Positions 23,893 through 43,269 of a stretch of 64,000 bases of DNA are shown here, piece after piece. Source of the stretch: Lama glama (Eukaryota); assembly GCA_028534125.1 (NCBI GenBank), contig CM052837.1, forward strand, positions 14,694,001 through 14,758,000, read 5' to 3'. The translations under genes and the position numbers were made by a program. Each line of letters begins with the position of its first letter. Position 1 is the stretch's first letter. The notes under the pieces were generated by a model. The model made no database searches and was not told the DNA's origin. It worked only from the letters and a program-made list of their open reading frames with translations.

Positions 23893-23977
23893 CTTAACAT
23901 GTACAGAACTATGATAATAAACACGATCACTAGCAGAGAGGACAGGGCCACCATCACTGCAATAATTGGCGTCTCAT
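23893..23977 (-). CDS. PTPRA: PTPRA transmembrane exon DETPIIAVMVALSSLLVIVFIIIVLYML(R)
   Basis: ttcag|ATGAGACG...TTAAG|gtgagc, 85 nt, hydrophobic helix matching PTPRA. Confidence 0.97.
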
Positions 23978-34391: not shown

Positions 34392-34418
34392 CTCTTCTGT
34401 CCTTCGAGTCAGAATTAC
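34392..34418 (-). CDS. PTPRA: PTPRA 27-nt alternative microexon (GNSDSKDRR insert of the long isoform)
   Basis: ttacgcag|GTAATTCTGACTCGAAGGACAGAAGAG|gtgagc. Frame-preserving; the peptide equals the known 9-aa PTPRA insert. Confidence 0.93.
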
Positions 34419-36118: not shown

Positions 36119-36251
36119 TGAGGGAGGGTGTGGCTCAGTGGTAGAGTACATGGCTGGCATGCAGGAGGTCCTGGGTTCAATCCCTAGTACCTCCATTATG
36201 AAATAAATAAATCTAATTACCCTCCCCAAAGAAAACAAAACAAAACAAAAC
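36119..36251 (+). mobile_element. tRNA-derived camelid SINE (Vic-1-like)
   Basis: A box tggctcagtgg, B box gggttcaatccc, (CAAAA)n tail, 12-bp TSD aaaatacaggac (36107, 36252). Confidence 0.88.
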
Positions 36252-39539: not shown

Positions 39540-40760
39540 CTAACCTGTTACTTGACAGATCGACTTGCCTTAGACCTAAGGCAAATCATTTAACCTCTAC
39601 AGTCTTACTTTAAGCATCTACTAAAAGGAGATAATTATCCTGGTCAGCTTACAGAATTGGTAAATGAAAGACTGGACAGAATAGAAGTTAAGAACATATG
39701 CTGTGAAAGACAGTCAGGCCTATGTGAGACTCACCTTTTCCATTTACTAATTCAGCTTGTACAGGTTATTTTGTTTTTCCTCTCTAAGCAAAGGCCATAA
39801 TTTATAGAAAGAAGTACATTTGTACCATTACTCACTATGTGTTTGCATATAACTGAAAAAAGTTTTACAAAATAATATATGTAACATGCAAAGAATAGAA
39901 ATGGAATAGGACCATCCATTAACACAGATACACACAAATTTGTGGTGGACCACTAACTGATTTCATGAATCAGTCATGATCTATACTTTAAAAAACACTC
40001 CCCAAGTTACAGTTTCATCGTCATAAAATTCCTTCACTGGTCAAACACAAAACAGAACCTACGTAATAGGATCCATTGGCTATTTCATAGAAATTACTTC
40101 TATGAAACTTAATATAATGCCTAACACTTAAAATTAGTGCTTACCATGTGCAGGATCCATTGTAAATGTTTCACCCATATTAACTGATTTAATCCTAACG
40201 AAGCAGATACTATTATCATTAATATTCATTCTTACTTACAGACGAAGAAACTGAGGTACAGAGGTTAAATAAACTTGCCTATCATCACACAGCTAGTGTA
40301 TGGCAGAGCTGGGATTCAAACTCAAGAACTGTGGCTCAGAAGATTGTGCTCTTAACTGCAAATGCTGCATAACCTTTACAGTGGAAAATATGGGATTAAA
40401 GCTGGCAGGTATAGGGTCTGAATTGTAACGTGTCATCTACAGTAACCAAATGAGACTCAGTTCAGCAAACATGCCCCCACGGGCCATGTGTGATTCCACC
40501 TAGGGTCACTCACTGTCTAACAAAGATATGAGTCAAGGGGATGAGATCAAAGAAGATGAACAGTGATTTTTGCTAGGAAAAGGAATTACACAGCTTTCAA
40601 GGAACAATTTCCTTTACTACTCACAGAAGTCCTTTGAGGGGCCCCCAATTTTCTTTTATAGACCAGGACCCTAAAGTTCAAAAAGGTCAGAAACTTGCCC
40701 TACCCAGCCTGGTCTCAGACTCAGGTCTCTGATTCTATCCTGGAACCCACTTCCACTTCA
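39540..40760. mobile_element. MIR fragments (+ ~39540-39700; - ~40115-40370; - ~40620-40760)
   Basis: MIR cores ggcaaatcatttaacctct and ttacagacgaagaaactgaggtacagaggttaaataaacttgcc. Confidence 0.7.
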
Positions 40761-41307: not shown

Positions 41308-41649
41308 CTGATGGAGGAAAAGTTTCCGGAGTGGTTGCTGCGGTGCTGGCATTCCCTTCCCAAAGTTCTGTCCTGGCATCTATGAACTGCTGATCGGGAA
41401 GCCATGTTCCATTTGGTGAAACTGTAGTGACTACAGAATTGGTGCTTACTGTTCTTGTGGTCCCATTGTCAGAGTCTGAAGAATTGACAGTGGTTACATA
41501 GGTGGGTCCCAGAGTTAGATTTAGGCTGAATGTTGGTGCCACAGAAGGAGAAGTTACTGAAGAAGTAGGATTTGAAGTTGTGGTCTCTTCTTTAGGTGAT
41601 TCTGCTGTAGATACTTTAATAGATCTTGTAACACCTACTGAAGGTGAAA
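41308..41649 (-). CDS. PTPRA: PTPRA ectodomain exon (Ser/Thr-rich, N-glycosylated), VSPSVGVTR...ETFPPS
   Basis: Inside ORF 41213..41662. Acceptor tttgtag, donor TCAG|gtacta, 342 nt, phase 1-1. Confidence 0.97.
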
Positions 41650-41765
41650 CTACAAACACCAAAAAAAAGAGAAAACATTGAACAAAGAATTTGATAGCTC
41701 AGAAGTTATGAGGCACAAAGGCAGCAAGCCCTTACTACACTCTCAAACACTCGGAGACCAAAGAC

Positions 41766-41794
41766 CACACACACACACACACACGCGCGCGTGT
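41766..41794. repeat. (CA)n(CG)n alternating purine-pyrimidine tract
   Basis: cacacacacacacacacacgcgcgcgtgt seen directly. Confidence 0.9.
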
Positions 41795-41983
41795 TTTTAT
41801 TTAATGTTGACCCTCTCTCTCCACTTCCAAAGGACTACTGTTAAAGGGAGGGAGAAACTGAATTCTCTACTTAATTTCTCAGAGTCAATATACAGGAATC
41901 TCAAGTACAACAAATTCTTTTTTCCTTTTTTTTCACTTTCCAGGAATGAACACATAATCTCTTTATTTAAAGTAGTATGTGGT

Positions 41984-42113
41984 GGGGAGGGTATAGCTCA
42001 GTGGCAGTGTGCATATTTGGCATGCATGAGATCCCAAGTTCAATTCCCAGAACCTCCATTAAAGAATAAATACATAAACCTAATTCTCTCTCCCTCAAAA
42101 ACAAACAACAAAC
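41984..42113 (+). mobile_element. tRNA-derived camelid SINE (Vic-1-like) in the intron between the first two coding exons
   Basis: ggggagggtatagctcagtgg...agttcaattccc; 15-bp TSD with 2 mismatches (41969, 42114). Confidence 0.88.
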
Positions 42114-42314
42114 AAAGGAGCATGTGGTATATAGAACAATCCTCAGCATACGAAATGACTCAGGGATTTCCAAAGATACCTGTTTTACCACCGATTTTAG
42201 TAAAACTTTAGTATTTTCTCTTTCTTTTATACCACTAAGGCCTTCATATTTGGGTCACTAAATTTAAAACAGAAATTCTATTCCAAATACTAGTCCTATT
42301 AAATGGCAATTTAC

Positions 42315-42387
42315 CTATAGTAGTGTTGTTGGCACCAACATGTATCAGACCACTGCCAAGCAGAACAAGAAGGAACCAGATATCCAT
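42315..42387 (-). CDS. PTPRA: PTPRA first coding exon, signal peptide MDIWFLLVLLGSGLIHVGANNTTI (whole exon 42315-42393, 6 nt of 5'UTR)
   Basis: Minus strand reads tttccag|GTCAAC ATG GAT ATC TGG...ACT ATA G|gtaaat. Matches the PTPRA N-terminus (human MDSWFILVLLGSGLI). 73 coding nt, phase 1. Too short for the ORF track. Confidence 0.96.
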
Positions 42388-42591
42388 GTTGACCTGGAAA
42401 ATAGAGAGTCATGTTAGGTAAGGTCCCATAATACTATGCCCAAACTACTCATCAAAGGAGCAAAATCTTTCTAGCTGTGATCCTGTGTACACACAGGATC
42501 AATCGATCTTTTGGCACACTTGCCCAGGAATCCAATTAATTAACTGAATCTTTACACAAATATAAGTAAGACTTAATAACACTTTTTAGAG

Positions 42592-42730: not shown

Positions 42731-43269
42731 CAAAATGACAAGTATGGAGAAGGTAGCTGATTGCATCAATGTAATGCCCTCCAACGCAAAAATTATACAG
42801 GTGTTCTCAATCTTAATTTTGCTTCAAACCGTATCAGAGGACCGTGACATTCCCGCTGGTATTAGTGGCTCATTCATCCATTCAGATGTTTGTGCCCTTT
42901 ACTAAGCTAGGTACTAGGGAAACAGTCAGGCAGCAAAATACTCAGACTCACAACCTAGAGGTAATTCAATACAGCAGTGATTCTCCAAGGGAATCAGGAC
43001 ATGCCTCCCCAAGAGGCACAGGAGAATCTCCGAGGGAGGATGGAAAAATAAACATCCCAGGAATTTGCCTCTGGTACCAGCAACCATACCTAGCAGAGAC
43101 CTGGGTTCAGCCGGTGGCCTTCCCATGGTACAGCCATATAAGATCTGACCAGTTCCCTAGTGACCATAATCTAAAATTGGGAAAGCATACAGTTCCCTCC
43201 ATAAGGGTTAGGAAACAGACTGGAACGCTGATTACTGTGTGTGTATGTGTGTCTATTCTTGATAAATCA

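Follow-up and report, generated by a model that had tools for sequence, protein, structure and literature searches.

The 64,000-nt stretch of llama (Lama glama) DNA analyzed here, referred to as the window, contains the 5' portion of the PTPRA coding region on its minus strand. In tblastn searches with pig and shrew PTPRA as queries, the start-codon exon, the ectodomain exon, a 27-nt exon, the transmembrane exon and further exons were recovered in order (Table 1), and the proteins closest to the PTPRA of the window are those of cetaceans and pig. The start-codon exon is bounded by an AG acceptor following a pyrimidine tract and by a GT donor, and consists of a 6-nt leader, the ATG (42385-42387) and the signal-peptide codons. 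This ATG corresponds to Met1 of the orthologs, some of which are annotated with a start further upstream. The ectodomain exon is Ser/Thr-rich and contains N-glycosylation sequons. The internal intron between these two exons harbors an element at 41981-42070 that we take to be a tRNA-like SINE, as well as a (CA)n repeat and, after it, a short (CG)n repeat (41767-41793). An intronic ATG located just upstream of the acceptor (42410-42412) lies in the shifted frame described below; it would be present in unspliced RNA only and probably reflects chance.

Table 1. Features of the PTPRA locus discussed in the text (positions refer to the window)
Feature	Position	Strand	Remarks
ACTAAT hexamer, upstream flank	42861-42866	-	no TAAY half-site within 20 nt
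PTPRA start-codon exon	42315-42393	-	79 nt; human exon also 79 nt
Internal intron	41650-42314	-	665 nt; 510 nt in human, by exon offsets
TAA ending the shifted frame, second lap	41616-41618	-	last base of Ile35 and first two bases of Lys36
PTPRA ectodomain exon	41308-41649	-	342 nt, AG/GT ends; human exon also 342 nt
ACTAAT hexamer, downstream flank	40133-40138	-	no TAAY half-site within 20 nt
27-nt alternative PTPRA exon, next downstream	34392-34418	-	corresponds to human 27-nt exon
Transmembrane exon, outside the proposed circle	23893-23977	-	85 nt; corresponds to human 85-nt exon

We searched the 21.6 kb of the window above the start-codon exon for an upstream 43-nt exon by motif, tblastn and profile scoring without finding it. 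In the annotated PTPRA proteins of squirrel, beaver, lemur, shrew and armadillo, the usual methionine is preceded by 11-13 additional in-frame residues, which probably derive from this 43-nt exon. A DNA search of the llama genome returned a single match for the start-codon exon, and we therefore rejected the idea of a circle-derived retrocopy in this genome.

A sequence-only reading of this DNA had proposed that the start-codon and ectodomain exons are back-spliced into a circle encoding a transmembrane-less PTPRA ectodomain with a new tail. In the modelled circle, the acceptor of the start-codon exon and the donor of the ectodomain exon are used (41308 joined to 42393). The arithmetic of the proposal was reproduced: the two exons (79 + 342) add up to 421 nt, which is 1 modulo 3. 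The resulting frameshift is forced by exon phase, since, relative to the PTPRA frame, the first exon of the circle begins in phase 0 and the last one ends in phase 1. The ATG is located at nucleotide 7 of the circle in a strong context (A at -3 and G at +4), with three DRACH motifs within the 80 nt preceding it on the circle. Translation of the circle from this ATG again gave a frame of 175 aa, composed of 138 linear residues and a 37-aa tail identical to the one first written. Thus, a junction-crossing ORF with start and stop is present on the modelled circle. This is a common feature, as ORFs were predicted in 2,488 of 2,531 tripled megakaryocyte circles (excerpts of PMC8906552). Conservation of the frameshift would be no evidence, because the lengths of the orthologs (134, 137, 138 and 154 residues) differ by whole codons, and such differences cannot change the frame.

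The predicted product has a hydrophobic N-terminus and seven sequons, and its mucin-like ectodomain is 38% Ser/Thr. Four cysteines are found in the tail and none in the mature ectodomain. The absence of a transmembrane helix was borne out by hydropathy: the best 19-residue Kyte-Doolittle mean of the tail is -0.1 versus 1.75 for the N-terminus.

The suggestion that human circPTPRA comes from the same two exons proved correct. The human circle, hsa_circ_0006117 (chr20:2,944,917-2,945,848, hg19), consists of PTPRA exons 8-9 and measures 421 nt, and its junction was verified by Sanger sequencing (excerpts of PMC10242365). The exon sizes are 79 and 342 nt, with flanking introns of ~16.2 kb (upstream) and ~10.0 kb, and rarer human forms join 43+79+342 and 79+342+27 nt (PMC8906552 Table S3); the first of these, at 464 nt, would be closed in another frame. 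In an ENCODE table that looks roughly ordered by abundance, the human circle stands in row 135 among at least 80,056 rows with 11,217 junction reads, the highest count of the 19 PTPRA rows among the matches listed (PMC6487579 Table S2). The same table labels it an 'Ambiguous circRNA'; the annotated upstream starts may explain this ambiguous-AUG label. The human circle also figures in a panel of abundant skin circles (excerpts of PMC9522259), is cytoplasmic and RNase R-resistant (excerpts of PMC6604667) and binds IGF2BP1 (excerpts of PMC8045402). The circPTPRA circle itself is already known biology and is abundant in human. Our literature searches for the circle in camelids, pig or cattle, or for its conservation in mouse together with polysomes, returned nothing relevant. 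Judged by analogy with human, the exon pair likely circularizes in llama too: gene, exon sizes and circle length are the same. Unlike the human circle, the llama circle is predicted from orthology, and its internal intron has a different length (665 versus 510 nt).

We then considered the flanking introns. The downstream intron is long, as had been claimed: the 27-nt exon follows after 6,889 nt and the transmembrane exon after 17,330 nt. The first of these values exceeds the cut-off of 6.5 kb above which a flanking intron is classified as 'long' (excerpts of PMC6487579). Our search for an inverted repeat pair across the flanks yielded only short AT-rich pairs, among them a 29-nt match, although stretches of N in the upstream flank could hide others (the window contains 1,303 N in total). 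The SINE copy in the internal intron and a second copy at 36122-36207 are 78% identical, but do not form an inverted pair because both have the same orientation. The lack of a convincing inverted repeat would fit a llama locus without any appreciable circle, in which the two exons are simply part of linear PTPRA, and mouse indeed shows only 41% of the Alu-independent and 31% of the long-intron human circles (excerpts of PMC6487579). But the two exons match the human ones in size, the downstream intron exceeds the cut-off, the human circle reaches a very high abundance, and the AUG class of circles is described as the most conserved one (excerpts of PMC6487579). We therefore regard a locus without the circle as unlikely. 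Instead, the PTPRA gene is intact and its start and ectodomain exons would be back-spliced into a 421-nt circle, a reaction presumably favored by long flanking introns rather than by inverted repeats.

Bipartite QKI elements consist of ACUAAY plus a UAAY half-site. Two hexamers in the flanks had been put forward as QKI-type motifs; both are present at the positions given for them (Table 1), but neither qualifies as a bipartite site, since half-sites are absent within 20 nt. The minus strand of the window contains 14 ACTAAT hexamers, and the chance of finding one this near is 0.10 upstream and 0.23 downstream, for distances chosen post hoc. QKI-driven circularization through these hexamers was rejected because both lack half-sites. 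A literature search linking QKI with circPTPRA found nothing relevant.

The 37-aa tail was the most distinctive element of the proposal, and we analyzed whether its length and composition exceed chance. Each shifted codon is made up of the third base of one PTPRA codon and the first two bases of the next. Therefore, a shifted stop needs a T in front of a codon starting with AA, AG or GA, and before Lys36 only four such stop-capable sites can vary, at the third base of codons 11, 19, 20 and 32. In synonymous shuffles, a tail of at least 37 residues was obtained with a probability of 0.25 (uniform) or 0.11 (third-base weights of the exon). As an internal control, stops occur at 2 of the 23 stop-capable sites after the stop of the tail, corresponding to a probability of 0.69 that four sites remain open; across all 138 codons, 3 of 29 stop-capable sites carry a stop. 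The open runs of the shifted frame are 35, 7, 40 and 53 codons long, the last two lying beyond the tail. TpA at codon junctions was observed 10 times versus 18 expected. The shifted frame is thus stop-poor because T rarely precedes an A-starting codon in the ectodomain exon, and the open frame lost its value as a signal, the length of the tail not being beyond chance.

The Cys/Trp richness of the tail fared no better. A T in front of a Val, Ala or Gly codon gives Cys or Trp in the shifted frame; within the tail this applies to 7 of 10 sites, and beyond it to 8 of 18. The proportion of Cys plus Trp (7/35) has an uncorrected P of 0.006 with uniform weights and of about 0.05 (0.047) with exon weights, but in 80% of the shuffles the best residue pair was at least as extreme as the exon-weighted Cys/Trp value. 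The composition therefore follows from T-ending codons of the main frame before Gly, Val and Ala.

We next asked what orthologous proteins permit. This test shows where a shifted residue or stop is impossible, irrespective of the actual DNA or the actual stop site, and bounds the conservation of the tail from above. It included 18 of the 32 proteins returned; dropped were eight without the start exon, three monkey 'like' copies, one with an insertion and two isoforms of the same species. A stop at position 36 is possible in 15 of the 18 orthologs. The three that exclude it, two seals and dog, all have Met35, likely the result of one event. In 13/18, one or more of the seven Cys/Trp positions are ruled out; all seven are permitted only in toothed whales, pig and hippo (5/18), the closest orthologs. 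The human protein permits a stop at the same position, in agreement at this protein-level bound with what had been suggested for the human shifted frame, and requires 7 of 34 tail positions to differ, including one Trp and one Cys. Conservation of the stop and of the Cys/Trp positions across mammals did not hold at the protein level, given the three orthologs without a possible stop there and the 13 with lost Cys/Trp positions, among them most of the non-artiodactyls. Taken together, the tail appears to carry no sign of selection, as far as the exon control and this protein-level bound can tell.

Published data on translation were consulted for circPTPRA and for its class. No circPTPRA-encoded protein was reported in the literature found (listings and the beginnings of abstracts), and searches for secreted circle-encoded receptors found no literature. 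PTPRA and 0006117 are absent from the text-searchable files of the circle-peptide supplements of PMC11245404, PMC9242994 and PMC10943130, whose tables may use other identifiers. In excerpts of the human circPTPRA papers (PMC8045402, PMC6604667, PMC10242365), miRNA sponging and IGF2BP1 binding are described, not translation. According to excerpts of Stagsted et al. (2019; PMC6487579), the post-junction ORFs of AUG circRNAs are unconstrained with a median of 10 aa, Ribo-seq phasing is absent for AUG and ambiguous-AUG circles as a class, and only circUBXN7 was enriched among those of the top-1,000 human circles that had 10 or more footprints on the junction, a set for which these excerpts do not state whether circPTPRA was included. 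Peptides from circles were detected neither in 35 million spectra (excerpts of PMC6487579) nor, as junction peptides, among 192,743 platelet peptides (Nicolet et al., excerpts of PMC8906552). These mass spectrometry negatives have little weight for circPTPRA, since the junction peptide predicted in silico for trypsin is 53 aa long and carries a sequon.

Some translation from the native AUG at a low level, by m6A- or IRES-like entry, could give a product without a selected role that is either scarce or cleared by ER quality control. The strong AUG context, the nearby DRACH motifs and the cytoplasmic, IGF2BP1-bound state of the human circle (excerpts of PMC6604667, PMC8045402) are consistent with such a scenario, and standard tryptic mass spectrometry could not easily exclude the product. 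We nevertheless consider it quite unlikely, given a class without phasing in which circUBXN7 is the only enriched circle (excerpts of PMC6487579).

Even less can be said for a decoy of receptor partners in the form of a secreted and glycosylated PTPRA ectodomain whose tail would be disulfide-bonded. The anatomy would fit, with a hydrophobic N-terminus, seven sequons, four tail cysteines and no transmembrane helix; the human circle is abundant; and secreted C-E-Cad with its unique 14-aa tail provides a precedent (excerpts of a review). But the tail is without constraint in both the exon control and the orthologs. It is absent from 32 related proteins, namely 18 of 62-198 aa (from 42 candidates) and 14 longer ones (from 113 candidates), and a database search with the shifted frame gave no candidate; these are weak negatives, and most of the short PTPRA matches read into an intron or are fragments of gene models. 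No circPTPRA protein turned up in the literature or supplements found. Moreover, a soluble PTPRA form has a simpler source, because ADAM17 already processes the PTP-alpha ectodomain (excerpts of a review citing Kapp 2012). A decoy is therefore highly improbable.

Our preferred explanation, which we hold to be fairly probable, is that the circle is back-spliced here as in human and is essentially untranslated, with the 175-aa frame being incidental. The circle would act, if at all, as an untranslated RNA, and the frame would be a by-product. Several observations speak against this explanation: the 37-aa tail exceeds the class median of 10 aa, the synonymous shuffles and the uncorrected Cys/Trp count give lower probabilities than the exon control, 15 of 18 orthologs allow the same stop and the five closest all seven Cys/Trp, and the AUG has a strong context with DRACH motifs nearby.

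With its start codon inside, a long downstream intron and an ORF ending after the junction, the predicted llama circle resembles the AUG circRNAs (excerpts of PMC6487579), the class in which its human ortholog is 'ambiguous'; clear inverted repeats, a feature that this class lacks, were not seen outside the N runs of the upstream flank. It differs from them in its leader of only 6 nt and its longer tail. Because the leader is so short, the second lap runs through coding sequence. A long and oddly composed post-junction tail can thus arise unselected when the second lap crosses a signal-peptide exon. C-E-Cad likewise combines the N-terminal part of a surface protein with a frameshifted tail, but its protein and function have been reported (excerpts of a review), whereas the predicted PTPRA tail is without constraint. 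The ADAM17-processed PTP-alpha ectodomain would be soluble and lack the transmembrane helix as well, but is formed by proteolysis of the normal receptor and has no new tail (excerpts of a review).

The locus most likely adds one probable ortholog of a known circle. A practical consequence concerns overexpression, since any circPTPRA construct carries the native AUG, the signal peptide and the stop. Overexpression vectors for circRNAs yield linear concatemers that rebuild such ORFs (excerpts of the Hansen preprint). By extension, linear by-products of circPTPRA constructs would make the 175-aa protein, and an AUG-mutant control is therefore needed in such experiments. Translation of the endogenous circle, should it occur, would open a second way to obtain soluble PTPRA ectodomain, and the published sponge models would have to be recast. 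We regard it as very improbable that this circle, one of the most abundant in human and conserved in llama, yields a secreted, glycosylated ectodomain with a Cys tail by translation from the native AUG, that the protein has been missed by trypsin-based mass spectrometry and that it causes some of the phenotypes credited to miRNA or IGF2BP1 sponging, including via vector concatemers.

Two irregular groups of protein models were encountered among the PTPRA orthologs. In the hippo model (P0026), translation departs from the PTPRA frame within the ectodomain and continues in the third frame of this exon, probably owing to an assembly or annotation error. Three 'PTPRA-like' proteins of Old World monkeys (P0010, P0014 and P0015) cover only the exons of the circle, and similarity breaks off precisely where the ectodomain exon ends. 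They have a 4-residue deletion in common, and in P0010 Met1 is replaced by Val. Judged from these protein sequences, they could represent a partial duplication or a circle-derived copy.
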